A stretch of 64,000 bases of DNA from contig JAGWKL010000005.1 in NCBI GenBank assembly GCA_028865345.1, positions 21,577 through 85,576 of the forward strand, in the 5' to 3' direction. Positions 4,554-57,883 of the stretch are shown here, piece after piece (the stretch's first letter is position 1; every line of letters begins with the position of its first letter). The notes below the pieces were generated by a model. That model had not been told where the DNA came from. It did no database searches and worked only from the letters and a program-made list of their open reading frames with translations. A program made the position numbers and the translations under genes. Origin of the DNA: Candidatus Omnitrophota bacterium. GTDB lineage: Bacteria; Omnitrophota; Gorgyraeia; Zapsychrales; Fredricksoniimonadaceae.

Positions 4554-6038
4554 ATGCCTTTCCATTCCATCCGCTTCAAGATCGTCCTGTGGCACATGCT
4601 GATCCTGTCCCTGGCCCTGTTCATTTTCGGGACGGTGCTCTATCACAATTTTTACCTGAAGGCCTCCGATGATACCGATGACATTTTGCGTTCCCGCGCC
4701 AAAGGTTTTGAACAGTCCATCAATACCTATTGGGAAGCCGAGAGCATGGCCATTGCCCAGGGAAACAGGAGGGTTCATTTTACCAAAGAAGATAATATCA
4801 ATTTTATAAGGCTGGCCAGGCGCTGGGTGGAGGAGAAGATCAATGACCCGGATTTAATCAATATAGTCGTGCGCATTTTCGATGCCCACGGAAATCCCAT
4901 TGCCTCTTCCAGGAATATCCCCATCGCGCACCTGAATGAGAGCATTTTTCACAACGTTAAGAAAGGCGCAGACCATTTTGAGAATGTTTTTCTGATGGAA
5001 GATGAGAAACCGTCCTCTTTCAGGACCCTCACCACTCCTGTCATGGAAGGCCGAAGGCTGGCCTACATCGTGCAGGTGGCCAGCCCCTTGTCCCAAATCC
5101 ATACCGTGCTTCGGAGTTTGCGCCTTTCTTTGCTTGTGTTGTTGCCCCTGACGGTCATCCTGACAGGATTGAGCGGCGTTTTTCTCGTCCAGCTGACGCT
5201 CAAGCCCGTTGACCAGATGATCGAGACCATCCACCAGATCAGGGCCGAAAATTTAAAGCTGCGGCTCAAGATCCCGGGCACCCGCGATGAAATAGAGTCC
5301 CTGGCCAGGACCTTTAACGAAATGATCGCCCGCCTGGATGAGGCCTTCACCACCCAGCGGCAATTCATGGAAGACATTTCCCATGAGCTTAAAACGCCTT
5401 TGGCGGTGCTTAAGGGAGAGCTGGAAGTCACGCTGAAAAAGATCCGGTCGACCCAGGAATACGAGACCGCCATGCACAGCATTCTCGAGGAGGTCGACCG
5501 CCTGGCGGGGATCGTGGGCAACCTTTTGACCCTGGCGAGGTTTGACGCGAAAACCACGGAGCTTGACGCGCAGCCGCTCGACCTCAACGCTTTGATCAAA
5601 GACGCGATAGAGGTCATGCAGGTGCTGGCCATCCAGAAAGACATAACGCTTCAATTCAACAGCGCCCATACGGTCGATATCACCGCCGACAAAAACCATC
5701 TCAGGCGGCTTATCTTGAATCTCCTGGACAATGCCATTAAATACACGCCGCCGGGAGGCAAGGTCTCCGTCGATCTCCGCCAACAGAAAGAAACGGTGGA
5801 CCTGGACATCGCGGACACCGGCGTTGGGATCCTTCCCAAAGACCTGCCCCATATTTTTGACCGTTTTTACAGGATCGACAAATCCCGCAGAAGCGCCGGC
5901 TTCGGGCTGGGCTTGAGCATCGCCCAGTCCATTGCCCTGGCGCATGGAGGGAAAATCGAGGCCAGGGCCAATGATCCCCAGGGAACGGTTTTTACCGTTT
6001 CTTTGCCGTTAAAGCCAAAACAGGTTATAGAATTTTAA
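4554..6038 (+). CDS. Sensor histidine kinase (two TM segments, periplasmic domain, HAMP, HisKA, HATPase).
   Basis: H-box EDISHELKTPL plus the N-box and G-box (NLLDNAIKYT, GLGLSIAQ). It sits 6 nt downstream of the regulator. Confidence 0.9.
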   Translation: MPFHSIRFKIVLWHMLILSLALFIFGTVLYHNFYLKASDDTDDILRSRAKGFEQSINTYWEAESMAIAQGNRRVHFTKEDNINFIRLARRWVEEKINDPDLINIVVRIFDAHGNPIASSRNIPIAHLNESIFHNVKKGADHFENVFLMEDEKPSSFRTLTTPVMEGRRLAYIVQVASPLSQIHTVLRSLRLSLLVLLPLTVILTGLSGVFLVQLTLKPVDQMIETIHQIRAENLKLRLKIPGTRDEIESLARTFNEMIARLDEAFTTQRQFMEDISHELKTPLAVLKGELEVTLKKIRSTQEYETAMHSILEEVDRLAGIVGNLLTLARFDAKTTELDAQPLDLNALIKDAIEVMQVLAIQKDITLQFNSAHTVDITADKNHLRRLILNLLDNAIKYTPPGGKVSVDLRQQKETVDLDIADTGVGILPKDLPHIFDRFYRIDKSRRSAGFGLGLSIAQSIALAHGGKIEARANDPQGTVFTVSLPLKPKQVIEF

Positions 6039-6119
6039 TTTTATTCTAATCGTTATCTAATCTCAGGTTGCCTAAACTAAAACACGCAAAAAATGACAGC
6101 GCATCAAAAGGGTTCTTCA

Positions 6120-6479
6120 ATGAAGTCCGTTATTTTCATAGCTTTATTGATTTTACCGTCAATGCGTATGGCCTGGGCCTGGGGCGATGATCCTGTCATG
6201 GCCGCGACCATTGTCGAAAGTACGCATACGATTTCAGGCGGGATAGTCAAGTCTGTTTCCCGGGCCGATCCGGCCAAGGGGACAAAATCCGAGATTGTGG
6301 TGACGGATTCCCGGAGAAAATCGATCCATGTCGTCATCACGCCCACCACCACTCTTTGGGACTCGGATGACAAGGCCATTATGCCGGATAAAATAACCGC
6401 CCGCGCCCGCGTGAATGTCATTTATGTCTCCACCCCTGAAGGCATCAACATAGGCCAATCCGTCAAAATCCTCAAGTAG
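6120..6479 (+). CDS. Small secreted hypothetical protein (signal peptide).
   Basis: N-terminal [20 protein letters not shown] is a signal peptide. The gene lies downstream of the two-component pair. The start could be at either 6093 or 6120. Confidence 0.45.
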
Positions 6480-8613: not shown

Positions 8614-10290
8614 ATGTCTGATATCAGAAAGTTCTCCCGTTTGGTTGTCGACGGCAATGACCGCGCACCCAACCGGTCCATGCTGCGCGCCACCGGGTTC
8701 AAGGATGAGGATTTTGGCAAAGCCCAAATCGGCGTGGTTTCCACCTGGAGCATGCTCACCCCCTGCAACATGCACATTGATAAATTGGCCGCCAAGGCGG
8801 TGGAGGGGGTTGACGCCGCCGGCGGCAAGGGCATCATTTTCGGCACCATCACCGTGGCCGACGGCATTTCCATGGGCACCGAGGGCATGAAGTATTCCCT
8901 GGTTTCCCGCGAGGTGATCGCGGATTCCGTGGAAACGGTCGCCGGATGCGAAGGCTTCGACGGGCTGGTGGCCGTGGGCGGCTGCGACAAGAACATGCCC
9001 GGTTGTGTGATCGCCATGGCCCGCCTGAACCGTCCGTCGGTGTTTGTTTATGGCGGCACCATTTTGCCCGGCTGCCTGCATGGACAGAACCTGGACATCG
9101 TTTCCGTATTTGAAGCGGTTGGCAAACATGCCGCCCGGAAAATTTCCGACCAGGAATTAAAAGATATCGAAAGCTGCGCCATACCGGGTCCCGGTTCATG
9201 CGGGGGGATGTACACGGCCAATACCATGGCCAGCGCCATCGAGGCTCTGGGCATGAGTCTTCCCAACAGCTCCATGCAAATTGCCGTGTCCCGGGAGAAA
9301 CAATTGGATTGTTTTAATGCCGGCGCCGCCGTCCTGGATTTATTGAAACGGAATCTCAGGCCCCGCGACATCATGACCAAAAAAGCTTTTGAAAATGCCA
9401 TTTGCGTGGTCACCGCCTTGGGCGGATCGACGAATGCCGTTTTGCATCTCATGGCCATTGCCCATGCGGCAGGCGTCAAATTAAACCTCGATGATTTCAC
9501 CCGCGTGAGCAAAAAAGTTCCGGTGTTGGCCGACCTTAAGCCCAGCGGCCGTTTTGTAACGGCGGAATTGGCGGCCATCGGCGGGCTTTTGCCGTTGATG
9601 AAAATGCTTTTGGACAAAGGCCTGTTGCACGGCGAGTGCATGACCGTGACAGGAAAAACCATGCGTGCCAATTTAGCTGATGTCAAACCATACCCCGCGG
9701 GCCAAGAGATCATCAGGCCGTTGGATAACCCCATTAAGAAGGAAGGCCATCTGGTCATTTTATATGGTAATCTTGCTCCTGAGGGTTCGGTAGCCAAGAT
9801 CACCGGCAAGGAAGGGTTGTCTTTCAGCGGGCGGGCCAAGGTTTTTGATTCGGAAGAAAAGGCGCTCAAAGCCATATTAGGCGGCAAAATTGTCAAGGGG
9901 GATGTGGTAGTGGTCCGCTATGAAGGCCCCCGCGGCGGTCCCGGCATGCGCGAGATGCTTTCTCCCACATCGGCCATTGCGGGCCGGGGACTCGGCAAGG
10001 ATGTCGCCTTGATCACCGACGGGCGGTTTTCCGGAGGTTCACACGGTTTTGTGGTAGGGCACATCACGCCCGAGGCTTTTAACGGCGGGCTTTTGGGTAT
10101 CGTCAAAAACGGCGATACCATCACCATTGACGCCGTCAAAAGGCAGATCGATCTTCTCCTCCCTGCGGCGGAAATCAAGAAGCGCCAAAAAGCCTGGGAA
10201 GCGCCAAAACCAAAATATACCCGCGGTGTCTTGGCCAAGTACGCTAAATTGGTCACCAGCGCCTCCAGTGGTGCAGTGACGGACAAATAA
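8614..10290 (+). CDS. ilvD: Dihydroxy-acid dehydratase.
   Basis: Matches the IlvD/Edd family throughout (CDKNMPG, SGGSHG). The ATG at 8614 comes straight after the leuD stop. Confidence 0.93.
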
Positions 10291-10293
10291 CTT

Positions 10294-10407
10294 ATGGCAG
10301 GCAATTCTTTCGGACAGTTTTTTAAGATCACCACCTTCGGCGAAAGCCACGGGCCCGCGATTGGGGGCGTCAAAAGGCCCAATTGCTTCGACGTCGAAAG
10401 AGGTTAA
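10294..10407 (+). other. Upstream ORF (37 aa) that duplicates the first 24 codons of aroC and ends in a conserved linker.
   Basis: Translation is [37 protein letters not shown]. The ATG lies 3 nt after the ilvD stop. The TAA overlaps the aroC RBS 2 nt before the aroC ATG. Confidence 0.5.
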
Positions 10408-10409
10408 TT

Positions 10410-11477
10410 ATGGCTGGTAATTCTTTTGGTCAGCTTTTTAAAATTACTACTTTTGGTGAAAGTCACGGACCTGCGATTGGGGTCGTCATTGACGGGGTGC
10501 CGCCCAAACTGCCATTGACCGAAGCAGACATTCAAAAAGATTTGGATCGCCGCCGTCCCGGCCAAAGCAAAATCACCACCCAGCGCCGGGAACCTGATAA
10601 GGCCGAGATCCTTTCCGGTGTCTTTGAAGGCAAAACAACAGGCGCGCCGCTGGCCATCCTCATCCGCAATACGGACGCCCGTTCCAAAGATTATGAGAAT
10701 ATCAAAGACGTGTTCCGTCCGGGCCATGCGGATTTCAGCTATATGGCTAAATACGGGATCCGAGACCACCGTGGCGGCGGGAGATCGTCAGGCCGGGAAA
10801 CCGCCTGTCGGGTCGCCGCCGGTGCGGTGGCCAAAAAGATTTTGGCCGGGCATAAGGTCGGGATCATTGTTTATACATTGTCCGTCGCGGGCGCCTATGC
10901 CCAGGAGATTGATTACAGTGTCATCGAAAAAAACGCGGTGCGTACCGCCGATATGAAAGCCGCCGGGCTCATGATCGCCAAGATTGAAGAGGCGCGCAAG
11001 AACGGCGATTCGCTGGGCAGCACCCTGCAGTGCGTTGTGAAAAATTGCCCTGCGGGCCTGGGCGATCCCTGCTTTGATAAACTCAATGCGCGCCTGGCCC
11101 AGGCATTGATGTCCATAGCGACCGTCAAGGGTATTGAATTCGGCGATGGGTTCGCCGCCAGCCAGCTGACGGGTTCCATCAACAACGACCGGTTTGTCCT
11201 TAAGGGTAAGAAAGTGGGGACCGCCACCAACCATTCCGGCGGCATCATGGGCGGCATATCCACCGGCGAAGACATCACCATCCGTATGGCATTGAAGCCG
11301 CCGTCATCCATTTCCAGGCTGCAGAAGACAATCAACGAGAAACAACAGGAAGTCGAAGTCCGGGTCAAAGGCCGCCATGATCCGTGCCTCGCCCCGAGAG
11401 TTGTCCCTGTGGCTGAAGCCATGATCGCCCTGACGCTGGTGGATTGTTTGATGATCCAGAAAGCCACAAATTTATAA
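10410..11477 (+). CDS. aroC: Chorismate synthase.
   Basis: N-terminus [29 protein letters not shown] and full-length AroC similarity. The SD GAAAGAGG is present. The ORF track's start at 10383 is an upstream TTG artefact. Confidence 0.93.
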   Translation: MAGNSFGQLFKITTFGESHGPAIGVVIDGVPPKLPLTEADIQKDLDRRRPGQSKITTQRREPDKAEILSGVFEGKTTGAPLAILIRNTDARSKDYENIKDVFRPGHADFSYMAKYGIRDHRGGGRSSGRETACRVAAGAVAKKILAGHKVGIIVYTLSVAGAYAQEIDYSVIEKNAVRTADMKAAGLMIAKIEEARKNGDSLGSTLQCVVKNCPAGLGDPCFDKLNARLAQALMSIATVKGIEFGDGFAASQLTGSINNDRFVLKGKKVGTATNHSGGIMGGISTGEDITIRMALKPPSSISRLQKTINEKQQEVEVRVKGRHDPCLAPRVVPVAEAMIALTLVDCLMIQKATNL

Positions 11478-11487
11478 ATCCATTGTC

Positions 11488-11553
11488 ATGCAGGATCAAA
11501 AAGTCATTTTAAATATTCCCTGTTCCTTCGACGGCGCCGGGGTACATGGATAA
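11488..11553 (+). other. Upstream ORF copy 1 (21 aa) of the SDR start-duplication module.
   Basis: Translation is MQDQKVILNIPCSFDGAGVHG*. Its TAA overlaps the next ATG (ATGGATAA). Confidence 0.4.
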
Positions 11554-11611
11554 TCGAAAAGTTATTCTCAATATTCCCTGTTCCTTCGAGGTCGGAAGGT
11601 TAAATGGATAA
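11546..11611 (+). other. Upstream ORF copy 2 (21 aa) of the SDR start-duplication module.
   Basis: Translation is MDNRKVILNIPCSFEVGRLNG*. It duplicates ATGGATAATCG(A/G)AAAGTT of the SDR gene. Its TAA overlaps SDR codons 2-3. Confidence 0.45.
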
Positions 11612-12452
11612 TCGGAAAGTTGTCCTGATTACGGGGTGTTCAAGCGGGTTTGGGCTGTCTACGGCTGTACGATTGGCTGCGAGCGGCCATTTTGTTTGGG
11701 CGACGATGAGGGACACGTCCAAAAGGTTCCGCCTGGAAAATGGGCTGGCCAAGCACAGGGCCCAGGCTTTTATCCGCGCGCTGGATGTCACGCAACCTCT
11801 TACCATCCAAAATGTCGTTGATGAAATCGACCAAACCCATGGGCGTATTGATGTGCTGGTCAATAACGCGGGCTATTTGGTCGCGGGGTTCTTTGAGGAT
11901 TTGAAGCCCGAGGAGATCCGCGCGCAGATGGAAACCAATTTTTTCGGGGCACAGAATGTCTGCCGCGGGGTTCTGCCTTTGATGCGCCGGCAAAAGAAGG
12001 GCAGGATCATCAATATTTCCAGTATTGCCGGGCAAATAGGCACTCCGACGCTGGGAGCGTACAATGCCAGCAAGTGGGCGCTGGAGGGATTCAGCGAAAG
12101 CCTTTATTTTGAACTTAAGCCCTTCGGGATTTCCGTTTCCCTGCTGGAACCCGGCCTTTATACAACCGAACTTTTCAGCAAGAATATCCGTTACGCACAG
12201 GATTTTGACAATCCCCAAAGCCCGTATTTCAGCCTGAACCGGAAAATTAAGGCGTTTTCCCATAAGTTCCATAAACTTGGGAAGGACCCCAACCGGATAG
12301 CCGGGCTGATTGAACGGATCATCAATGAGAGGTCCCCGCGTTTGCGCTATGTTTCCGATTTTCCATCGTGGGTAAGGATCAATGCCCAAAAGATCCTGCC
12401 GCCGGCCTGGGTGGCCTATATTCTCAGGAGGGTTTTTCATGCAGACAAATAA
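11604..12452 (+). CDS. Short-chain dehydrogenase/reductase (SDR family oxidoreductase).
   Basis: TGCSSGFG Rossmann motif, NNAG, and the catalytic S...YxxxK (YNASK). Confidence 0.85.
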   Translation: MDNRKVVLITGCSSGFGLSTAVRLAASGHFVWATMRDTSKRFRLENGLAKHRAQAFIRALDVTQPLTIQNVVDEIDQTHGRIDVLVNNAGYLVAGFFEDLKPEEIRAQMETNFFGAQNVCRGVLPLMRRQKKGRIINISSIAGQIGTPTLGAYNASKWALEGFSESLYFELKPFGISVSLLEPGLYTTELFSKNIRYAQDFDNPQSPYFSLNRKIKAFSHKFHKLGKDPNRIAGLIERIINERSPRLRYVSDFPSWVRINAQKILPPAWVAYILRRVFHADK

Positions 12453-19059: not shown

Positions 19060-22000
19060 TTGACCATGCTTAGAAAAATTTTGAGCCTGACCGTTATTTT
19101 CTGTTTTTTTCTCACAACTTTAACCCCCTATCCCAAAGCCCACGCAGATATAATGGCCGCCCTGCCGGCGCCCGGGACCATGGTCAATTTAAGCCCGGCT
19201 TACCAGCCTGTATTGATCAAGGGTTTGACCGTTCATAAAGACAATCCGTTCCTTTTTGATTTCATGGTGGATACCGGCAACAGCGGCATGACCGGCGCCC
19301 GGCTGAAGAAAGAAAGCGACCGCCTGGTCAAATACTTTTTCGCCTGCTTGACCATCCCCGAAAAAGATCTGTGGGTCAACCTTTCCCCATATGAAAAGAA
19401 CCGCATGATCCCCAGAGCCCTTGGTCAGACCGCGTTGGGACGCGATCTGTTGGCCGAAGATTATATCCTTAAACAGTTGACTGCTTCCCTAATATATCCC
19501 GAAAAAGACCTTGGCAGGACCTTCTGGAACAGGGTTTATGCAAAAGCCCGGCAGATGTACGGCACCACCCAGATCCCGGTGAATACCTTCAATAAGGTAT
19601 GGATCGTTGCTGATAAAGCTACTGTATATGAGCATGGCCAGACGGCGTTCGTGGTCAGGGGACACCTGAAGGTGATGCTTGAAAAAGATTATTTGGCCTT
19701 GAAGAAACATATGGCGGGTGCTGTTGAAGGCCGGGCGGGGTCTTCCCGGACCAATGACCTTGGCTCCCAGATTGTGCGCGAGATCGTCCTGCCCGAGATC
19801 GATAAAGAAGTGAACACGGGCAGGAATTTCGTTGCCCTGCGTCAGATATTTAATTCTCTTATCCTGGCCGCGTGGTACAAGAAGGAGCTCAAGCAGGCCT
19901 TGTTGAACCGGGTTTATGCCGATAAGAGCACCGTCAAAGGCATGAACCTGGCCGACCCTTCCGTCAAGGAAATGATCTATCAACGCTATCTGGAAGCGTA
20001 CAAGAAGGGTGTGTTCAATTATGTCAAGGAGTATACCCGGGCCGACGGCCAGGTGGTCCCCAGAAAATATTTTTCCGGCGGGTTTGTTTCAGATTTGAAA
20101 ATGACCGTAGACAAAGACCCTGCGGATGCGGCCCAGGCCGCCGAGCCGACGGGGAATATGGTGGACGTGTCCGTCGGGCTGAAGGTCAAAACCGGCGACC
20201 AGGCCATGACGCCCCAGACCAATGATTTCGATAATGCGTATGTCCTCTGGGACGAGCAGACCTCCCAGTTGGATGAACATACGGGCAAGGGCCTGGTCGG
20301 TGGAAAATCTTATCAGGCGGCCAGGTATTGGAAAGACGAACCGGCCAATAATCTGCGCAGTTTTTCCGCCACCGCCAAGGCTTCCATCGATTTTTTGAAT
20401 TCCAACCAGGATCTGCTTCCCGAGATATACCGTATCACCCGCGACCTTGATGCTTCCGATGAAACGGCCAGGGAAGAGGCCGGCGCCAGGATCCGAGCCT
20501 TGATCACGGGTACGCCCGTTCCTGCTGCCATTGAACAGGCCGTCCGCCAGGGCTACCGCAGATTGGTCAGCATCACGGACCAGCCGTTGGTGGCGGTGCG
20601 CAGCTCCGGGAAGGCGGAGGATATTTCCCTGAATGTCCCGGAACTGGCCGGGATCAATATGGGCGCCAATGCCGGGCAGCATGACACCTTCCTTGGGGAA
20701 ATGGGCGCAGATGCGGTCATTAAACGCTGGAGGGACTGTATCGCTTCGCTGTATACGGCCCGGGTCCTTGGCTACCGCGACAGCATGATGGTCTTCAGCG
20801 CCTTCGGCAAGATTCTGCCCAACAAACAATTGACCGCGGAGATCATTGCCAAGCTAAAGACAGGCAACGATGAGGACAGGCTTGTGGCCCGCGCCATTGA
20901 GGAAAAGAACATAGGGATCATCTCTTCTTTAAGATTATTGCATGCCTTGCAGCGCAACGGTTTTCAGGAAGCGGCGAAGCTGGTCAGTGAAGCGCGCGAG
21001 GATTTCATCAAGATCGCAAACATAGCCATGGGGGTCACGATCATGCCCATGGCCGGCGTTGACATTTCCTTCGTGGCCTTCGGGCATGACATGACCTCCT
21101 ACTGGACGGCGAAGGATTTCCAGGACGTTTCTCCCGAGGAATATCTTAATAAAGGCCGGGTGGTGACTGTCACCACCAATTACGGCCTGGGGGAATCTAT
21201 CGTGCAGGGGGCTGCCATGCCCGATACGTTTCTGGTGCACATTTTTAAAGATTCAAGCGGGGAACATGTCAATATCCTTTCCCGGACCCTGGGCACGAAA
21301 AGCGTGCAGACCGTATATGTCGCCCCTGTCATGGAGGCTCTCGGTCTCAACCATGCTTCGGTGAAACTGTTCCTGGAATTATTGGGGGCCGGGGATGTCA
21401 CGGCCTTCAGCGGCTTGGGCAACGCAAAGGATTATAACGAGATGCATCTTAAGAAGGGGGCCGATCTGGTCGTCATCAAAGACGTCCTGGAACGGTTGAT
21501 CAAAGAAAAGGTCGATGGGACATCCTCTGTGAAGATCACGGCCGATGAGCTGTCCCAATTCACGTATACCAGGGAAGAATTGGATAAACTGGCGCACCTT
21601 TTAAAGGCGTTCCAGAAGGACCCGGAGATCAAGACCATGTTCACGGACGTCCCGGAGGAGTTGCGCAACCAGTTTTCGGCCAGCGATGAGCAGGTCCGCA
21701 AGATCGCCCTGGAGTTCATGAAAAAGGCCAAAGATTTTCACGATCTCGTGGATATGGAAGGCGCCGTGGGCAAGAATTTCAGCCGGCTCAACGTCGCGGT
21801 GACGACCCAGCGCCGCCCCTCCAATGTGGACAAAGGCGACGTCAAGGAACCACGGATGATCAATATCCATTACACCTATGTGAAGGCCGGCGACGTCGAT
21901 AAGATCCGTGCCGGGAAGGAACGCATCACCAAGGCCGACGGACAGTTGACGAACATTGTGGTCGGTGAACAACTGGTCCAGGGCATCCCCACCCGCAACA

Positions 22001-25000
22001 GTTTTTCGGGGACGATTTACAAGATCGATGACTCCAAGGACCTGACGCCCCAATTTGAGGAGATCAAACGTCTGGCCGATGAAGGCCATAAGATCATTAT
22101 CCGTACCAATGAGACGACTCCGGACTATATCGATGTGTTGAAATATAAAAATGTGGTGGGGGTCATCGCCAATTCAGGCGGGGCGACCTCGCACGCGGCG
22201 GTCGTTTCCAGGGAGCTTGGTATCGCCACGGTGGTGGGCATTCAGAGCTGGCTGGACAGGCTGGCCGATACCCTGGGCCCGCAGAAGGCTATGGAGATCA
22301 AGGAATATCTCGATACGACCGGGAGCATTGTGACCGTGGACGCCAATGCCGGCGAAGAAACGGGTTTGGGTACCGTTTATGCAGGCCAGTTGCCCATCAG
22401 TACGCGCAACATCGAGATAGACATATCACGCCTTCCTTATATTTACACCAAGATCGGCTATATCATGGGCATGCCCCATCCGATGCTGGCCATGTCTAAA
22501 ATGTCTCAATATAAGGGATATTACGGGGTGGCGCTGATGCGCGGGGAGTTCGCTTACGCGGAGGAAGGCATCAATCCGCGGGCGGGGCGCGCCTATGATC
22601 TGATGCTGGTGGATGATTATTTGAAGACGTACAGGGACAACAATGCAGCCAAAGCTTATTATGAAAAATTGGGGCGGGCGGAAAGAGAAGCCCTCGACAC
22701 CTTCAGGACCCTTCTTGAACGAAGGGCGGATCTGCGCGCCCGGGGGCAGGACATTCCTTTGGATGAAACACAACGGTACATCGAGCAGTTCAAGAATAAG
22801 CGTCCGGGGGCTTTTTTAAAGAGCCTCTCCACCTACCAGCAGACGGACATTGAGCTGCTGAGGGAGCACAGCGAAGATGTGGGGAAATTGACCAAACAGA
22901 TCGTCGGGTATTTGTCGTACAATGAGTTTTTTGAAGCGGTGCACGGCGGGGCGGTGGCGACCATGGCCGCAGCCAACAGCCAGGAAAACGATACCGTCGT
23001 TTATCGCAGCATCGACTTCAAGAAAAACGAAGCGGCCGAACTGATCGGCTCCAAGATCTTTGACCCTATCCCCGAGCCCGCCACCATGATCGGTGAGCGC
23101 GGCGCCCGCTGGCTTTTAAAGCCGGAGAACAGGGTCATCCTTGTCGAAGAGATCCACATGCTCCTGCGGCAGGTCGACCGGGGTTATAAAAATATCGGTT
23201 TCATGTTCCCCTTTGTGTCTACTCCCCACGAGTTGGACCAGCTTTTGACCATATTGGATAATGAAGAAAGGAGTTTCAGTCTCCAGGAGAACAAACCTTT
23301 ATATTTAAGGGAAGTCGGACAAATGGTGGAACTGCCCAGCAACATCGTGGAGGCAGAACAGTTCATCCAGGTTCTCAAGAGGCACGAAGCCAGGACCAAA
23401 GCGTGGTTCAAGGAGAAGTTTTCCGTGGACATCAAGCGCAGCAGCTTTCTGTCCTTCGGGACCAATGACCTGACTCAGTTGACCCTCGGTGCGGACAGGG
23501 ACAATCCCAAAATGAGGCAATTGTTCAATGAGGCCAACCCCTTTGTCATCGAATCCATCCGCCACGTGGTCAATATGGCCAATAAATACGGGATCAAATG
23601 CGGGCTTTGCGGCCAGGCGCTGGTGAACCTGGTCAATGTGGACCCTGATGCGGCGGAGGAGATCCTCATGCTCCTCGGTTCCACGGGAGGGTATGCCGGG
23701 ACGGACTATCTGGGCACCCTGGCGGCCATCACCCGTTCCGCGAGCGCGACCCTGAAACACGGGGTGGTGGCGGATGAAGTGGCTGCCTCGGCGCAACCGA
23801 TCGCCCTGCACATTGAGTCCACCTTGGAGCACGGGGCGGCCGCCCGTCCTTTGTATCAGGTGACAACCCACGAGGATCTGGACAAAACCTATTTGGGTGA
23901 TTTTATCTTCGTCCATAACGGTATTTTGTCGGGTTTTGAAAAGGACGAGAAGTTAAAGCAGCAGCTTTCCCGTTTGGGGGCCATTATCTACAGCGATGAT
24001 AAACTGGCCGACGTGATCAAGACCGTCAGCAAGACCTTACGCGTGCCGGCCGTTAAGGTGGATGCAGGCGCCGACCGCCTCGCCGCTGTATCTAACGGAG
24101 ATAAAGTCACCATTGATTTCAACCGCCATGCCATTTACAGAGGCGCCCTGGAGGTTTCCATCGATGTGCCTGAAATAGCCAGCAAGATCGACGTCAACGC
24201 CAAACACCATCCGGAATTAAAGCGCATCGACTTTAACGAGACCTTCCGCGCTTCGGACTTGTACAAAAGCCTGGGCATCTATCCGACGGCTTTCCTGGCC
24301 TTTGATGACCCGAAAAAGCAAGGTGAGCTCGACCCTGAGACCATCGCCGAGATCAGGCATTTGATGCGCGAAACGCAGAGTTCTTCGGCCGTAGGAGTCC
24401 TGCGCCATGAGATCCAAAAGAGGATCACCTCTCAAATGGTCCAGCCTGATGCCAGAATGGTTTATGAGACCATGGACCTGCAGAGTGATGATCAGATCAA
24501 GCTGCTGGGCCATAAAGCCATGGGCGCCGTGGAAGAGGTCAACCCGCCCTTAGGGTTCAACGGCCTGGAAGCTTTGATGGACGACCCTCAATTGAGGGAA
24601 CTCTTCAAGGTCGAGATGTCCACCGTCAAGGGGCTGATCGACAAGGGGTATAATATTTCTATTCAATTCAACGGCATCAAGACCCCCAAGAGCCTGCAGG
24701 AGGCCATGGCGATCCTAAAGGAGATCGGCATTGATCCCTCCAAGGTCAAGGTGGGCATGAATACAGCCTGGCCCGGCAATTATCTTTTCCTGCAGGAATA
24801 CCTGGCCCAGGGGCTTTCCTTTGTGACCGTGGATGAAAGGAAGTTGGCCCAAGCGTATCTGGCGGCCGATCTTTATAAGAACGAAAGGGTCCGCGATACT
24901 TATGCATGGAACAATATCAAGGCGGACATGAATTATCCCGAAAGGATGATCGAACAGGCCGTTGCTGATTATTCCGCCAGAAAGCACGATGTCTTCATCC

Positions 25001-25317
25001 GGACCATCCCCTTTGATTCTGCCATGACAGCGCCCCCTGAAATGCCTGTTGCCGCCGTGAGGACGCAAGCGGCCGTCCCGCCGGGCGGTATCGACTTAAA
25101 TACCGCCAACATGGCCATGACGGTGACCAAAGACGCCGACGGCGGAGTAAAGGTGCTTACGCAGTCGAAACAATTGGGCCTTTTGATCGCGCGCATCAAG
25201 ACCAGGGGGGTATTCTCGGCGGACCCTGTCATTATCCGTATCACGCCCATAAGCCGCGCGCAGATATCGCCTTTGTTGGGCTTGCGGGTGTCACCGGCCC
25301 GGTCGGCCCAGGTTTAA
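19060..25317 (+). CDS. Giant (2085 aa) signal-peptide or anchor protein with PEP-utilising-enzyme domains (PPDK/PEPS-like).
   Basis: N-terminal hydrophobic signal. Nucleotide-binding motif VAVRSSGKAEDISLNVPELAG. Phospho-His swivel GGATSHAAVVSRELGIATVVG. TIM-barrel motif FLSFGTNDLTQLTLGADRDN. About 450 aa N-terminal and about 550 aa C-terminal have no clear assignment. Confidence 0.75.
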   Translation: MTMLRKILSLTVIFCFFLTTLTPYPKAHADIMAALPAPGTMVNLSPAYQPVLIKGLTVHKDNPFLFDFMVDTGNSGMTGARLKKESDRLVKYFFACLTIPEKDLWVNLSPYEKNRMIPRALGQTALGRDLLAEDYILKQLTASLIYPEKDLGRTFWNRVYAKARQMYGTTQIPVNTFNKVWIVADKATVYEHGQTAFVVRGHLKVMLEKDYLALKKHMAGAVEGRAGSSRTNDLGSQIVREIVLPEIDKEVNTGRNFVALRQIFNSLILAAWYKKELKQALLNRVYADKSTVKGMNLADPSVKEMIYQRYLEAYKKGVFNYVKEYTRADGQVVPRKYFSGGFVSDLKMTVDKDPADAAQAAEPTGNMVDVSVGLKVKTGDQAMTPQTNDFDNAYVLWDEQTSQLDEHTGKGLVGGKSYQAARYWKDEPANNLRSFSATAKASIDFLNSNQDLLPEIYRITRDLDASDETAREEAGARIRALITGTPVPAAIEQAVRQGYRRLVSITDQPLVAVRSSGKAEDISLNVPELAGINMGANAGQHDTFLGEMGADAVIKRWRDCIASLYTARVLGYRDSMMVFSAFGKILPNKQLTAEIIAKLKTGNDEDRLVARAIEEKNIGIISSLRLLHALQRNGFQEAAKLVSEAREDFIKIANIAMGVTIMPMAGVDISFVAFGHDMTSYWTAKDFQDVSPEEYLNKGRVVTVTTNYGLGESIVQGAAMPDTFLVHIFKDSSGEHVNILSRTLGTKSVQTVYVAPVMEALGLNHASVKLFLELLGAGDVTAFSGLGNAKDYNEMHLKKGADLVVIKDVLERLIKEKVDGTSSVKITADELSQFTYTREELDKLAHLLKAFQKDPEIKTMFTDVPEELRNQFSASDEQVRKIALEFMKKAKDFHDLVDMEGAVGKNFSRLNVAVTTQRRPSNVDKGDVKEPRMINIHYTYVKAGDVDKIRAGKERITKADGQLTNIVVGEQLVQGIPTRNSFSGTIYKIDDSKDLTPQFEEIKRLADEGHKIIIRTNETTPDYIDVLKYKNVVGVIANSGGATSHAAVVSRELGIATVVGIQSWLDRLADTLGPQKAMEIKEYLDTTGSIVTVDANAGEETGLGTVYAGQLPISTRNIEIDISRLPYIYTKIGYIMGMPHPMLAMSKMSQYKGYYGVALMRGEFAYAEEGINPRAGRAYDLMLVDDYLKTYRDNNAAKAYYEKLGRAEREALDTFRTLLERRADLRARGQDIPLDETQRYIEQFKNKRPGAFLKSLSTYQQTDIELLREHSEDVGKLTKQIVGYLSYNEFFEAVHGGAVATMAAANSQENDTVVYRSIDFKKNEAAELIGSKIFDPIPEPATMIGERGARWLLKPENRVILVEEIHMLLRQVDRGYKNIGFMFPFVSTPHELDQLLTILDNEERSFSLQENKPLYLREVGQMVELPSNIVEAEQFIQVLKRHEARTKAWFKEKFSVDIKRSSFLSFGTNDLTQLTLGADRDNPKMRQLFNEANPFVIESIRHVVNMANKYGIKCGLCGQALVNLVNVDPDAAEEILMLLGSTGGYAGTDYLGTLAAITRSASATLKHGVVADEVAASAQPIALHIESTLEHGAAARPLYQVTTHEDLDKTYLGDFIFVHNGILSGFEKDEKLKQQLSRLGAIIYSDDKLADVIKTVSKTLRVPAVKVDAGADRLAAVSNGDKVTIDFNRHAIYRGALEVSIDVPEIASKIDVNAKHHPELKRIDFNETFRASDLYKSLGIYPTAFLAFDDPKKQGELDPETIAEIRHLMRETQSSSAVGVLRHEIQKRITSQMVQPDARMVYETMDLQSDDQIKLLGHKAMGAVEEVNPPLGFNGLEALMDDPQLRELFKVEMSTVKGLIDKGYNISIQFNGIKTPKSLQEAMAILKEIGIDPSKVKVGMNTAWPGNYLFLQEYLAQGLSFVTVDERKLAQAYLAADLYKNERVRDTYAWNNIKADMNYPERMIEQAVADYSARKHDVFIRTIPFDSAMTAPPEMPVAAVRTQAAVPPGGIDLNTANMAMTVTKDADGGVKVLTQSKQLGLLIARIKTRGVFSADPVIIRITPISRAQISPLLGLRVSPARSAQV

Positions 25318-35681: not shown

Positions 35682-36104
35682 TCAGGCGGCAGGTTTTCCG
35701 TGGATCCAGGATTTACTTCCGTCGGTATAAAATTCTTTTTTCCAGATCAGCAGTCTTTTTTTGACCTCTTCAATGATGTAGCGGCAGGCCTTGAAGGCCT
35801 CATCGCGGTGAGGGGCCCATACGCCGATCCATACCGCGGTCTCCGTGGTTTTTAATTGGCCGGTCCTCTGAATGCACACAGCATCATGGATGAGAAAACC
35901 GGTGGTGGCTTCCTTGATTATTTTTTCGCCCTCGGCAAGGACGGCGGGCGCCTCGGCGATATACAAAAGCCCGCTGACAGCGCGGTCGTGTGTTTGGTCG
36001 GCCCTGACCGTGCCTTCAAAAATCACCAGGGCGCCGTCGGCCGGATCGCGGTACATGTTCCTTGCTTGCGCAACGTCGATGGGGCTTTCTTGGAGGATAA
36101 ACAT
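35682..36104 (-). CDS. moaE: Molybdopterin synthase catalytic subunit MoaE.
   Basis: MoaE family motifs (GALVIFEGTVR, HR.G...WKKE). Confidence 0.8.
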   Translation of the reverse strand: MFILQESPIDVAQARNMYRDPADGALVIFEGTVRADQTHDRAVSGLLYIAEAPAVLAEGEKIIKEATTGFLIHDAVCIQRTGQLKTTETAVWIGVWAPHRDEAFKACRYIIEEVKKRLLIWKKEFYTDGSKSWIHGKPAA

Positions 36105-36154
36105 ATCAATACGTTGCTTATATTCCCTGTTTCTTCGGCGCCGTTAGGTTTTAT

Positions 36155-36409
36155 TTAATAAGTTACTTTTACCGTTCCCTGTAAAATCCTGCATTGGCAT
36201 CCCAAACGGTGGGTACGGTCCATGGCCAGGTCCGTTTCTTCCTTGTTCAATGTATTGATATTTTCTGCGCCTTCGAGGACCTCGATCTGGCAGGTGCCGC
36301 AGACGCCGGAATTGCAGGAAAACGGGATGCCTGCCGCCTCGCAAGCCTCGGCGATCTGTTGGCCGTCGGGTACTTCATAGGTGACATTATCTATAATCAG
36401 TTTTGCCAT
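36155..36409 (-). CDS. [2Fe-2S] ferredoxin.
   Basis: Cys motif CNSGVCGTC....C. The start is 1 nt after the ispH stop. The ORF track's longer start at 36442 overlaps ispH. Confidence 0.75.
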   Translation of the reverse strand: MAKLIIDNVTYEVPDGQQIAEACEAAGIPFSCNSGVCGTCQIEVLEGAENINTLNKEETDLAMDRTHRLGCQCRILQGTVKVTY

Positions 36410-52609: not shown

Positions 52610-53659
52610 ATGTACGAAAAAGAGCTGGAATATCCGGTTAAGACCGTTCGTGCCGGTGTTTGGGGTGTCAGCGGATATACCGGCCGCGAAGTTTTTTCGC
52701 TGCTTTTGAAACACCGGGGCGTGAGGGTGACCTATGTGGCCGCCAACAACACCCAAGGGCCTTTGCCTGAAATTTTTCAGGAATTCCTGAACCGTACGAC
52801 CCTGGTTTGCCGCCCATTCAGCGTCAAGAAAACCGCGAAAAGGTGTGACGTGGTTTTCTTGGCCTTGCCGCACACTCAGTCCATGGCGGTGGTGCCGAAG
52901 TTATTAAAAGCGGGCTTAAAGGTCATTGACTTAAGCGCAGACTACAGGCTTAAAAGCCCCGAGGTTTATGAACAGTGGTATGGGCACAAACATGACGATA
53001 TAAGGAATCTAAGCAAGGCCGTTTACGGTCTGCCGGAGTTGTTTCGTCAGAAAATAAAAGGGGCCGTCTTTGTGGCCAATCCGGGCTGCTACCCTACGGC
53101 GGCCGTTTTGGGGCTGGCGCCGTTGATCGCCACTGCCAAGGACATTTTGTCCATCGTCGTGGACGCCAAATCAGGGGTTTCCGGCGCCGGACGTAAGGCC
53201 GCGGTGGAAAAGCTTTTCGGCGAGGTCAGTGAAAACTTCAAGGCGTATAAAGTGTTGAGCCATCAGCACGCGCCGGAAATCGAGCAATATTGTTCTCAAT
53301 TGGCCGGCAGGGAAACACCCATTCATTTTGTGGCGCACCTGCTTCCCATCACGCGGGGCATTTTAAATACGATGTATGTGCATTTAAAAGAGGGCATTGC
53401 TTTAAATCAACTGTACAATCTTTATAAGAAATTTTATAAGATCGAGCCTTTTGTGCGCGTCCATCCGTTGGGAAGCCAGCCGGAGGTCAAGAGTGTGGCC
53501 AATACCAATTTCTGCGATATCGGTTTGGCGGTAAGCCCAGACAAGAAGATGGTGGTCATTACGTCGGCCATTGATAATTTGGTCAAAGGCGCCGCCGGAC
53601 AGGCGGTACAAAACATGAATTTGATGCTGGGATTTAATGAAACTGAAGGATTGTTATGA
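52610..53659 (+). CDS. argC: N-acetyl-gamma-glutamyl-phosphate reductase.
   Basis: ArgC family with the active-site Cys (PGCYPT). The ATG at 52610 follows SD GAGGA. The ORF track's 52589 start is an upstream TTG. Confidence 0.9.
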   Translation: MYEKELEYPVKTVRAGVWGVSGYTGREVFSLLLKHRGVRVTYVAANNTQGPLPEIFQEFLNRTTLVCRPFSVKKTAKRCDVVFLALPHTQSMAVVPKLLKAGLKVIDLSADYRLKSPEVYEQWYGHKHDDIRNLSKAVYGLPELFRQKIKGAVFVANPGCYPTAAVLGLAPLIATAKDILSIVVDAKSGVSGAGRKAAVEKLFGEVSENFKAYKVLSHQHAPEIEQYCSQLAGRETPIHFVAHLLPITRGILNTMYVHLKEGIALNQLYNLYKKFYKIEPFVRVHPLGSQPEVKSVANTNFCDIGLAVSPDKKMVVITSAIDNLVKGAAGQAVQNMNLMLGFNETEGLL

Positions 53660-53775
53660 AGATGACTCGAGGCGGGGTAACGGCAGCTAAAGGGTTTTTG
53701 GCCAACGGGGTATCGGCAGGCAATATTCCCTATTGCTTCGAATTCGTAAGGGGTTCTGCATATGAAAATTATTAA
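53656..53775 (+). other. Upstream ORF (39 aa) that duplicates the argJ N-terminus and ends in the conserved linker.
   Basis: Translation is MKMTRGGVTAAKGFLANGVSAGNIPYCFEFVRGSAYENY*. Its ATG overlaps the argC TGA (ATGA). Its stop falls inside argJ codons 4-5. Confidence 0.5.
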
Positions 53776-54904
53776 GGGCGGAGTTTGTACTCCTAAAGGT
53801 TTCTTGGCCAATGGTGTGTCATCAGGTATCAAACGGTCAGGGAAGCTGGATTTAGGCGTCATTGTTTCCGAAGTGCCCGCTGTTGTGGCCGGGGTGTTTA
53901 CCAAAAGTTCCATCAAGGCAGCGCCTCTCATCGTCAGCATGAAGCATATCAAAAAAGGCTCTGGAAGGGCGGTGGTGGCCAATTCCGGCAACGCCAATTG
54001 TTTTACCGGTCCCGCCGGGTTAAGGTATGCGCAGGGAACGGCGGAAGCGGTGGCCGGGTTTCTTGGCGTCGGACCCGCGGATGTTTTGGTGACATCCACA
54101 GGGATCATTGGTAAGACCCTGCCTTACAATAAGATCATCGACGCGCTGCCGGCTTTGCTCAAGGGTGTCGGCTCCAAAGGCGGCGGTAATTTCGCCAGGG
54201 CCATCATGACGACGGATTTGAAGGTCAAGGAATGCGCTGTTTCGCTTGTGATCGGAGGCAAAAAAGTCTCCGTCGGCGGCTGCGCCAAAGGTTCCGGGAT
54301 GATCGAACCCAATATGGCCACCATGCTCGGGTTTATCACTACGGACGCATCGATCTCTTTAAAGATGTTGAAGCTGGCTTTAAAGCGCGCCACGGAGCGT
54401 TCGTTCAACAGCATTACCGTCGATGGGTGCATGAGCACCAATGATATGGTCACCGTGCAGGCCAATGGGCTGGCCGCCAACACAAAAATCACGGCACAAG
54501 GGGCTGATTTCAAGAAGTTTTACGGGGCGCTCGAATTTGTCTGCGTCGATTTGGCCAAGCAGATCGTACTCGACGGGGAAGGCGCCACCAAATTTATAGC
54601 GGTCCATGTCAAGGGCGCGGCGGATGGTCCCCAAGCCCGTACAATAGCCAAAACCATCGCCAATTCACCCTTAGTCAAGACTGCGGCTTTCGGCAGCAAC
54701 CCTAATTGGGGGCGGGTGGCTGCGGCCGTGGGTTCCTTGGGGATCGCCCGGATCAACGAGAACAGCGTGAAGATCACTTTTTCCCCCTTTGACAAAAAGG
54801 AAATCAGCATTGGCGTCGAACTTTCGTTGGGACGTGCCGAAGCCACGGTTTACACCTGCGATCTTTCGCTCGAGTATGTGCGGATCAACGGGGAGTACAA
54901 TTGA
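53762..54904 (+). CDS. argJ: Bifunctional glutamate N-acetyltransferase / amino-acid acetyltransferase.
   Basis: ArgJ family (GFLANGVSSGIK...ATMLGFITTDA, with the self-cleavage Thr). Confidence 0.92.
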   Translation: MKIIKGGVCTPKGFLANGVSSGIKRSGKLDLGVIVSEVPAVVAGVFTKSSIKAAPLIVSMKHIKKGSGRAVVANSGNANCFTGPAGLRYAQGTAEAVAGFLGVGPADVLVTSTGIIGKTLPYNKIIDALPALLKGVGSKGGGNFARAIMTTDLKVKECAVSLVIGGKKVSVGGCAKGSGMIEPNMATMLGFITTDASISLKMLKLALKRATERSFNSITVDGCMSTNDMVTVQANGLAANTKITAQGADFKKFYGALEFVCVDLAKQIVLDGEGATKFIAVHVKGAADGPQARTIAKTIANSPLVKTAAFGSNPNWGRVAAAVGSLGIARINENSVKITFSPFDKKEISIGVELSLGRAEATVYTCDLSLEYVRINGEYN

Positions 54905-56963: not shown

Positions 56964-57883
56964 AACGGGACTTTATCAAATTATCGGATTATTCCGGGGT
57001 TGAAATTCTGGGCCTGGTGGGTTGTGCGGACCGGCTCAAAAGGCAAAAGGGAAAACTACGCGCGGATTTAAAGGGAAAATCTGTGGCCCTGGTGTTCCAG
57101 AAGCCGTCCAACCGCACGAGGGTCTCTTTTGAAGTCGGCGTTTATGAACTGGGAGGTCACTGCCTTTATTTGGGGCCGGAAGAGATCAATTTAGGCAAAC
57201 GCGAATCCACGCCTGACGTGGCCAAGACTTTGTCGCGTTATGTGCATTGTATCGTGGCGCGGGTCTATGACAATAAAGACATTGTCGAACTGGCCCGGTA
57301 TGCGGATGTCCCGGTCATTAACGCTTTGTGCGATCTCTATCATCCCTGTCAGGCGCTGGCGGACATCCAAACCATCCGTGAGCGGTTCGGAAAATTTAAA
57401 GGCCTGACCCTGGCCTATGTGGGCGACGGAAACAACGTGTTCCATTCCTTGATGGTGGCCTGCGCCTTGGTGGGGATCAATGTGCGTTTTGCCGGGCCTA
57501 AAGGTTATGATCCCGATCCCGAAATCGTGCGTCACGCGGCAGGTCTGGCCCGGCGGAACAAATGCACCATTGAGTTGGGCAGGAGGCCCCAGGAAGCTGT
57601 CAAAGCTGCGGATGTGATTTATTCGGACGTCTGGGTCAGCATGGGACAGGAAAAAGAGACGGCCCGCCGCGTCAGGGAATTCAGGGGTTACCAGATCAAC
57701 GCCGGCCTTTTGCAGGCGGCCCATAAAGATTATATTTTTATGCACTGCCTGCCCGCGCACCGTGGCCTGGAAGTGACGGCCGACATCATCGACGGCAAAC
57801 ACTCGGTGATCTTCGACCAGGCCGAGAACCGCCTGCATGCGCAGAAAGCAGTTCTTTTAAAATTGTTAGAAAGGTCATTATGA
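56960..57883 (+). CDS. argF: Ornithine carbamoyltransferase.
   Basis: STRTR motif (SNRTRVSFE) and HCLP. The ATG at 56960 overlaps the argD stop. Confidence 0.92.
   Translation: MKRDFIKLSDYSGVEILGLVGCADRLKRQKGKLRADLKGKSVALVFQKPSNRTRVSFEVGVYELGGHCLYLGPEEINLGKRESTPDVAKTLSRYVHCIVARVYDNKDIVELARYADVPVINALCDLYHPCQALADIQTIRERFGKFKGLTLAYVGDGNNVFHSLMVACALVGINVRFAGPKGYDPDPEIVRHAAGLARRNKCTIELGRRPQEAVKAADVIYSDVWVSMGQEKETARRVREFRGYQINAGLLQAAHKDYIFMHCLPAHRGLEVTADIIDGKHSVIFDQAENRLHAQKAVLLKLLERSL

Follow-up and report, generated by a model that had tools for sequence, protein, structure and literature searches.

The 64,000-nt stretch of a Candidatus Omnitrophota genome analyzed here (contig JAGWKL010000005.1; hereafter "the window", to whose positions all coordinates refer) contains three gene junctions, ilvD/aroC, aroC/SDR and argC/argJ, at which the beginning of the downstream gene is present as an additional copy, followed by a short linker and then by the intact gene. 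The linkers belong to a family of repeat units of about 37 nt (AAAAGGCCCAATTGCTTCGACnTCGTAAGGTTGTGTC). These units are probably small mobile elements akin to miniature inverted-repeat transposable elements (MITEs) or repetitive extragenic palindromic (REP) sequences, whose insertion would have generated long target duplications of variable length and left behind a relay upstream open reading frame (uORF) ahead of each gene.

Anatomy of the modules at the three junctions

At the aroC junction the remnant ATG lies 3 nt past the ilvD stop codon (10288-10290), and aroC codons 1-26 (78 nt) are present twice, the two copies (10294-10371 and 10410-10487) being 81% identical. The SDR junction consists of two tandem 58-nt units (11488-11545 and 11546-11603), each composed of a 24-nt start copy and a 34-nt linker, and the first remnant begins 10 nt beyond the aroC stop codon (11475-11477). 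At argC/argJ, the argC stop codon and the remnant ATG (53656) overlap within the sequence ATGA, which is the native arrangement. The features of the three junctions are the following:

10294-10371, + strand: remnant of aroC codons 1-26; native junction with ilvD kept
10372-10409, + strand: repeat unit (linker), 38 nt, AAAAGG subtype (nhmmer 41.8 bits, E=4e-12)
10294-10407, + strand: uORF of 37 codons (remnant plus unit); TAA 2 nt before the aroC ATG at 10410
10410-10487, + strand: functional copy of the duplicated aroC segment (aroC, 10410-11477), A/T-recoded; the target motif ATTG follows at 10488
11488-11511, + strand: first remnant of SDR codons 1-8, as read from the sequence
11512-11545, + strand: repeat unit, 34 nt, AATATT subtype, 3' half diverged (nhmmer 23.5 bits)
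11546-11569, + strand: second remnant of SDR codons 1-8, part of a 58-nt tandem unit
11570-11603, + strand: repeat unit, 34 nt, AATATT subtype (nhmmer 29.6 bits); GGAAGG 4 nt before the SDR ATG
11488-11611, + strand: two relay uORFs (11488-11553 and 11546-11611), in each of which the TAA overlaps the next ATG (ATGGATAA)
11604-11627, + strand: functional copy of the duplicated SDR segment (gene, 11604-12452); ATTA follows
53656-53721, + strand: remnant of argJ codons 1-22, diverged; native ATGA overlap with the argC stop codon
53722-53761, + strand: repeat unit plus spacer, 40 nt, AATATT subtype (nhmmer 35 bits); AAGGGG ahead of the argJ ATG
53656-53775, + strand: uORF of 39 codons; stop codon 11-13 nt inside argJ
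53762-53827, + strand: functional copy of the duplicated argJ segment (argJ, 53762-54904); ATCA follows

On reading the sequence, all three junctions were as the original prediction had described them, and in each the short open reading frame (ORF) begins at or within 10 nt of the upstream stop codon, as proposed. The duplication itself was also confirmed; its length had been given as 6-24 codons, and the counts are 26 (aroC), 8 in both SDR copies and 22 (argJ). The four predicted linker copies were all found, with lengths of 34-40 nt. The AATATT subtype (AATATTCCCTGTTCC...) is present at the SDR and argJ junctions, and the argJ unit has a near-identical counterpart in a relative's genome (locus L009; L-numbers are labels of the compared genome and metagenome loci). 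The linker core CCCNRTTSCTTCGA occurs exactly four times in the window, vs 0.00 occurrences expected from 100 shuffles.

When all plausible starts in the window were scanned at the protein level, N-terminal duplications turned up at these three junctions only. The site 57083-57092 was rejected as a further duplication, as it is internal to argF, and the duplication matches near 13 kb are TPR repeats.

Empty junctions in related genomes

The orthologous junctions were compared in close relatives, the check that had been suggested along with the original prediction, and they proved empty at all three sites. In relatives whose AroC is 93%, 90% and 83% identical, the ilvD/aroC and aroC/SDR spacers measure 1-16 nt and contain no element; the aroC-junction unit is absent from L088, L089, L090 and L091; and the argJ relatives L092-L094 have an empty argC/argJ junction with the native ATGA overlap. 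Since these empty junctions are tightly coupled and occur in close relatives at every site, we conclude that the modules are insertions. All three junctions thus display the presence/absence polymorphism that is one of the hallmarks of MITEs. The 93% relative, metagenome-assembled genome (MAG) REEB252, carries units at other genome positions (L009 and L050), which indicates that the family is active, or was recently active, in this clade.

The SDR insertion is shared with other loci. A single orthologous unit is located at the same SDR codon as in the window both in L090 (the 87% relative) and in the metagenomic locus L190; the shared insertion must therefore be old, and some lineages have lost it or never acquired it. 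In the window as in L090 and L190 the uORF is the same, with 21 codons and the ending ATG..TAA/TAG, despite about 20% DNA divergence. L200, where the same unit subtype lies just 5' of an ATG, is a candidate only, the identity of its gene not having been checked.

A different structure was observed at positions 801-830 of L095, an ArgJ relative (386-aa variants P0123 and P0124), where 18 inserted nt (ATGACCCTCGGACCACAG) separate the argC-coupled ATG from the conserved ATGAAAATT start and result in a duplicated ATG. This insert may be what is left of a similar insertion, either as a footprint or after an internal deletion.

A repeat family of Omnitrophota-type genomes

A scan of genomes with a degenerate 20-mer, using one genome per species, yielded 81 loci, and a profile was built from the clear copies. 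Profile matches of 28-52 bits were found only in Candidatus Omnitrophota MAGs and in "uncultured Planctomycetales" bins, often several per genome; the scattered matches in other phyla reached 18-25 bits and covered only the searched 20-mer. On the strength of these matches, the family appears to be confined to Omnitrophota-type genomes. A metagenome scan with a more specific pattern gave at least 120 loci, with 117 distinct copies among the matches listed. In total, about 180 unit copies are present in 1.5 Mb of compared loci, so the linker search proposed earlier did reveal a multi-copy family.

The profile search detected six unit copies in the window, two of which had been missed by the original prediction:

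25156-25186, - strand: unit copy inside a giant ORF (19060-25317), in-frame, in the C-terminal region (nhmmer 29.5 bits, E=3e-8)
36121-36155, + strand: weak, diverged unit copy (nhmmer 7.3 bits, E=0.31; sequence read directly)

With six copies per 64 kb, the units are short (<300 bp), non-coding and multi-copy, as MITEs are. The copy at 25156-25186 is located in the "GGIDLN...PVII" region of a 2085-aa protein and encodes ..VLTQSKQLGLLI..; by analogy with Rickettsia palindromic elements (RPEs), it could be an in-frame insertion tolerated within a protein. The copy at 36121-36155 is located within the 56 nt that separate a ferredoxin-like ORF from the next gene (start at 36104), both on the minus strand; this copy is opposite in orientation to both neighbors and is not accompanied by a duplication.

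The 37-nt unit is only a weak palindrome, with a fold z of about 0, and the four solo linkers of the window fold no better than their shuffles (z -0.5 to +0.9). Head-to-tail units without spacers were found in L026 and L080. Twenty-seven units are located directly ahead of a second repeat, an independent REP-like element that we named the HP module, which consists of a GTGTC head and the palindrome ATTGCGAG...GAAGCAAT; it is present in 61 copies in the 1.5 Mb, 34 of them without the 37-nt unit. Within the REP-like element the unit is placed at the same |ATTGCG target. The composite of unit and HP module has inverted termini, AAAAG..ATTGCTTCGAC and GnCGAAGCAATCTTTT, which pair with each other, and it folds (z = -2.1). 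The repeat form of the module is GTGTC + ATTGCGAG(C/G)...(C/G)GAAGCAAT + CTYT, for example at L105 9254, L125 8900 and L129 281. A match between ATTGCTTCG of the unit and the complement of the 3' arm of the HP repeat suggests that the two repeats are related.

In L079 (3880-3980) and, in reverse, in L087 (approximately 6027-6120), a conserved stretch of some 45 nt (ATGGC..CGGTGACTTACAGGCAAGAG..TGTAATCCGACGG) comes after the unit, with conserved synteny in the two genomes. An RNA gene or the end of an insertion sequence was suspected here; ARAGORN finds no tRNA.

No Rfam family was matched at gathering thresholds in the window and 11 element-rich loci, except for the tRNA in L056, and a BLAST search of plasmid records with the composite element gave no match. 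The searchable literature, examined by topic and by sequence strings, describes neither the element nor its sequence, in agreement with the earlier statement that no described element with these properties is known. As far as can be told, the family is recurrent across a phylum and undescribed.

One fixed and one variable duplication end

A duplication abutting the 5' end of the unit accompanies 21 of the 117 distinct metagenomic copies among the matches listed (about 17%). Together with six further genome loci, there are approximately 27 duplication cases, variable in length from 19 to 105 nt. The duplicated targets comprise aroC, argJ, SDR, atpE, moaA (L021, L177), a Mrp-like ATPase, a response regulator and others; atpE was hit at two codons, after codon 13 (L062, L160) and after codon 22 (L018). 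In L056 the first 19 nt of a tRNA-Arg, confirmed by both Rfam and ARAGORN, are duplicated. Where element and gene point in opposite directions, it is the 3' end of the gene that is duplicated, and the variable edge falls 0 nt (L205) or 7 nt (L111) past the stop codon.

The fixed end is the sharply defined 5' end of the element, which the upstream copy always adjoins. The downstream copy is followed by AT in 24 of the 27 duplications, vs a background of 7.6%, with the consensus |AT(T/C/A)(G/A). The 3' side of the element is variable, ending after 26-88 nt, and the second edge of the duplication is located 0-15 nt before the start codon, at the tRNA 5' end or at the stop codon. The original prediction had considered a small insertion element that targets start codons and makes long target-site duplications (TSDs). 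The empty sites, the phylum-restricted family and the recurrent duplications uphold the element and its duplications; start codons are not the target as such, because the fixed point lies 5' of AT(T/C/A)(G/A) inside the gene and it is the variable edge that falls at the start.

At several variable junctions (L164, L025, L185, L018, L195 and argJ) the native Shine-Dalgarno (SD) sequence (AAGG, TAAGGA or GAAAGG) coincides with CGTAAGG of the element. This coincidence could equally reflect microhomology or selection for an SD at the right spacing.

In this genome 76% of ATHG[AC] motifs fall in frame as an Ile codon in any case, so an in-frame Ile codon was rejected as a special signal. As the target motif is mostly such a codon, the element is nearly always read in one frame. 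The peptide tail shared by the modules (-N-I-P-C/Y-x-F-E/D-x-x-R-G), to which the original prediction had drawn attention, is indeed present; it is a by-product of this fixed target motif, which accounts for it with no need of a role for the peptide.

Two loci have a more complex structure. The atpE locus L018 (3935-4330; CAZACW010000028.1) contains at least three tandem start copies with units, with a masked N run between them; the real atpE copy is a mosaic whose first half matches copy 2 and whose second half matches copy 1, a pattern that suggests gene conversion or recombination among the repeats. In L050 (6040-6330; JAGWOI010000025.1), from the closest relative, reverse-strand start-like copies MEVSLINEGPVTF.. 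and MDVALVNDGPVTL.. are parted by a reversed unit, and another reversed unit, a degenerate one, comes after them. Here the 5' end is duplicated although the element points the other way, and the A/T-rich copy is the one in the native upstream context.

The putative relay upstream open reading frames

In every one of the 24 cases, which represent 17 independent sites, the uORF that starts at the remnant ATG stops between -15 and +19 nt from the real ATG, with five exact ATGA overlaps. None of the 24 is fused in-frame to the real gene; in the three cases in which the frame would lead to fusion, a stop codon is located just upstream. The other two frames through the element usually stop within a few codons. 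In the window, the stops are located 2 nt before (aroC), and 8 nt (SDR) and 13 nt (argJ) after, the A of the real ATG. The proposal that each short ORF terminates overlapping the genuine start is thus correct for SDR, where TAA overlaps ATG, and has to be modified for argJ, where the stop lies inside the gene, and for aroC, where it precedes the ATG. The linkers carry a putative ribosome binding site (RBS) for the real gene, as predicted: a unit-borne GAGG (7 nt ahead of the ATG in aroC), GGAAGG or AAGGGG is located 4-9 nt ahead of the real starts.

This architecture, with the stop codon near the start in all 24 cases as in translationally coupled bicistrons, is the anatomy of termination-reinitiation coupling. 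The translational-coupling relay suggested by the original prediction therefore describes the resulting architecture well, and on this sequence anatomy a function in coupling seems likely. No terminator-like sites were found inside the aroC or SDR modules, the two that the scan covered. Given this result and the unstructured linkers, the unit would act via its sequence and reading frame and not via structure. A hairpin sequestering the RBS was rejected on the same folding results.

Synonymous A/T recoding of the functional copy

The GC content at third codon positions (GC3) of aroC is 0.69 in the remnant, 0.27 in the functional copy, 0.67 in the rest of the gene and 0.62 in the closest empty-site relative. 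For argJ, the corresponding values are 0.59 (remnant), 0.32 (functional copy) and 0.67 (rest of the gene). These two genes have the lowest 5' GC3 among 58 window genes. Comparison with four outgroups assigned at least 9 derived changes to the functional copy of aroC, all synonymous and mostly C to T, and 2 to the remnant, both non-synonymous and the only such differences. For argJ, the outgroup comparison gave 9 derived changes in the functional copy vs 4 in the remnant. Over all cases, the copies differ at 155 synonymous codons vs 63 amino acids, and the A/T direction was observed in 15 of 22 cases (20 informative) and reversed in 5 (sign test p = 0.04, the orthologues not being independent).

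Recoding and remnant decay are also visible as strain polymorphisms. At 10469, a third codon position of the recoded aroC copy, the window has A, and L002, L003, the remnant and most outgroups have G; at 10322, L002 has a non-synonymous T>C in the aroC remnant. As the polymorphism at 10469 separates strains that are 99.8% identical, the recoding must be gradual and was not completed in one step at insertion. One-shot mutagenesis (deamination or error-prone fill-in) was rejected for aroC, given that 9 of 12 third-position Cs are changed vs 0 of 9 first- or second-position Cs (hand count) and that one change is still polymorphic. Our preferred guess is that the recoding results from selection for an unstructured, U-rich initiation region after the loss of direct stop-start coupling.

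Proposed mechanism and alternatives

We consider it probable that each linker represents one copy of a small mobile repeat that is non-autonomous. The AAAAGGCCC end of the element would be joined 5' of a target such as ATTG, ATCG or ATAG, and the target DNA from this insertion point to a second, variable point 19-105 nt upstream is duplicated. An insertion in the first codons would leave the gene intact only if the duplication reaches the translation start, and presumably only such events are seen. The orphaned upstream copy has the native start, through which it would stay coupled to the upstream gene, and its frame runs on through the element. Ribosomes are probably relayed to the real gene by termination-reinitiation, by the new SD (an AAGG/GAGG SD-like motif in the element), or by both. 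After insertion, the functional copy tends to change toward A/T at synonymous sites, possibly for the reason given above.

Several observations weigh against this proposal. Neither a transposase nor an autonomous parent with matching ends was found in the 1.5 Mb of loci, where inverted unit pairs lack consistent or IS (insertion sequence)-like spacing, so that mobility is deduced from the presence/absence pattern and the copy number. Unlike classical MITEs, the solo units of the window lack a second inverted terminus. Selection for gene integrity does not account for a variable edge that hugs the start (0-15 nt) even inside operons, where any point of the upstream gene would do. The recoding trend is reversed in the SDR cases, and mRNA folding, which changes in the right direction, explains the recoding weakly (-17.4 vs -22.4 kcal/mol, with 12% of random recodings matching it), so that mRNA unfolding was rejected as its full cause.

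A more speculative reading, to which we give clearly less credence, is a new mode of insertion with one site-specific end (|ATHR) and a second junction at a functional boundary, namely the initiation region, the tRNA 5' end or the stop codon. Three routes to the second junction are conceivable: SD-like microhomology, a second nick at AT-N-R, or a step templated by an RNA end. If this reading were true, insertion into essential genes would be intrinsically gene-sparing, and the relay would be built automatically, to be followed by directed synonymous recoding.

Template switching during replication without any transposase, similar to microhomology-mediated break-induced replication (MMBIR) or fork stalling and template switching (FoSTeS), is an unlikely explanation. 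A strand stalled at AT(H)R would copy about 26-90 nt of another repeat, re-anneal upstream by microhomology and copy the start again. Such a process would account for the variable 3' end of the element and the variable duplication length, for the native SDs that coincide with CGTAAGG at several variable junctions, and for the lack of a transposase in the loci. However, a 5' boundary that is constant in all copies and a target motif of 4 nt next to the fixed end are what a site-specific enzyme would leave, not random switching, and the microhomology is indistinguishable from selection for SD spacing.

Still less probable is an RNA- or cDNA-mediated insertion, in which the downstream copy would be reverse-transcribed 5' RNA of the gene joined to element RNA, with the RNA end as the variable edge. 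This edge does fall at RNA boundaries (the tRNA-Arg 5' end, 0-15 nt before ATG, and 0 and 7 nt after stops); the combination of one sharp end, one truncated end and variable duplications resembles target-primed reverse transcription; and the changes are concentrated in the downstream copy. Nevertheless, RNA 5' ends exactly at ATG are unexpected for operon-internal genes, nearly all changes in the downstream copy are synonymous, with one still polymorphic, which points to gradual selection and not to polymerase error, and no reverse transcriptase is linked to the element.

We regard as very improbable, and largely refuted by the distribution of the unit, a non-mobile regulatory cassette evolved by the host in place at each junction, either a translational coupler or a leader-peptide attenuator. 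Although the uORF-to-start architecture is consistent and the unit contains an SD-like motif, the unit is also found reversed, within ORFs, ahead of a tRNA, in gene-free tandems and embedded in another repeat, and close relatives lack it at these sites. The leader-peptide device, one of the readings offered by the original prediction, is effectively excluded: relatives do without the module, the aroC and SDR modules, the two that were scanned, have no terminator-like site, the solo units have no significant fold (z about 0), and there is no regulatory codon run, the uORF peptide being the gene's own N-terminus plus KRPNCFD/NIPCSFE, a tail common to unrelated genes.

An assembly or binning artefact (collapsed or chimeric repeats), conceivable for short repeats and in view of the masked N run between the copies in L018, is effectively excluded, because the junction structure recurs in three other MAGs (GCA_028870875, GCA_028871075 and GCA_028866185) and in an independent assembly (Logan SRR32006849), at about 99.8% identity and with one SNP within the modules, which are identical across four independently built assemblies of the same species; moreover, orthologous, sequence-diverged modules exist in other species and samples, and reads cannot have been collapsed, as the repeat copies have diverged from one another.

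Implications

These modules show how a tiny, probably mobile repeat can settle in the 5' coding regions of operon genes that are essential and tightly coupled (aroC, argJ, atpE, moaA) and yet leave them intact. They provide some 20 naturally occurring putative translation relays of the "bicistronic design" type, as well as dozens of independent events for the study of long variable target duplications, so far known from a few IS elements and from restriction-modification (RM) cassettes. The asymmetric recoding is a natural experiment on the needs of the first 20-25 codons after the loss of direct stop-start coupling. For gene callers, such sites are a source of spurious small ORFs in annotations and possibly of wrong starts.

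Comparison with known systems

Small repeats that are tolerated in protein-coding genes and read in-frame are known as RPEs in Rickettsia. They stay within the protein and are not accompanied by a gene-restoring duplication, and only the window copy at 25156-25186 resembles them. The arrangement of a short upstream ORF that holds the downstream SD and stops at, or overlapping, the start (ATGA, TAATG) is shared with natural termination-reinitiation and with the synthetic bicistronic designs (BCDs) reportedly described by Mutalik et al. in 2013. Here, however, the leader ORF would be an accidental fusion of a duplicated start with a mobile element, neither designed nor ancestral, and its function is predicted from sequence. 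A CRISPR array was rejected, since the "spacers" are copies of the adjacent gene start and units also occur head-to-tail without spacers (L026 and L080).

MITEs and REP sequences, the latter also as bacterial interspersed mosaic elements (BIMEs) and REPINs, are well-known small non-autonomous repeats (PMC3184786). The unit family resembles them in being short, non-coding, multi-copy and lineage-specific, in forming modular mosaics (in tandem or with a REP-like hairpin) and, potentially, in affecting neighboring expression. A classical MITE, however, has two terminal inverted repeats and a short TSD of fixed length, whereas the window copies are solo, with one terminus and duplications of 24-78 nt, and the duplications of the whole family (19-105 nt) are neither short nor fixed in length. 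REPs make no TSD and are extragenic, in contrast to the window copies, which are unstructured (z about 0) and located inside gene 5' ends. The HP module fits the REP/BIME description of a 20-40-nt palindrome with a short head (GTGTC), whereas the 37-nt unit is only weakly palindromic.

Long direct repeats of variable length (8-514 bp), for which there is no mechanistic model, are made by IS1549 of Mycobacterium smegmatis and IS1634 of Mycoplasma mycoides (PMC2266710), and duplications of 19-26 bp are known for IS1630, as are long variable target duplications for restriction-modification units (PMC2853133). IS1634-family elements have been reported in Omnitrophota (preprint 10.64898/2026.06.07.730766). 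The unit family shares with IS1549, IS1634 and IS1630 the long target direct repeats of variable length. The IS1634-family elements, however, measure 1.5-2 kb and are autonomous, with a DDE transposase, whereas the element described here measures 26-88 nt, is non-coding, has one constant and one truncated end and is linked to no transposase. With kb-sized gene cassettes it has in common that a single-copy sequence of the empty site becomes a direct repeat of >30 bp flanking the insert, often overlapping a gene end, and that classical mobile-element genes are lacking; but each of those cassettes is different, whereas the insert here is a multi-copy repeat of 37 nt that is conserved and has a defined target motif. 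The unit family thus combines a small multi-copy repeat with long variable duplications at gene boundaries.

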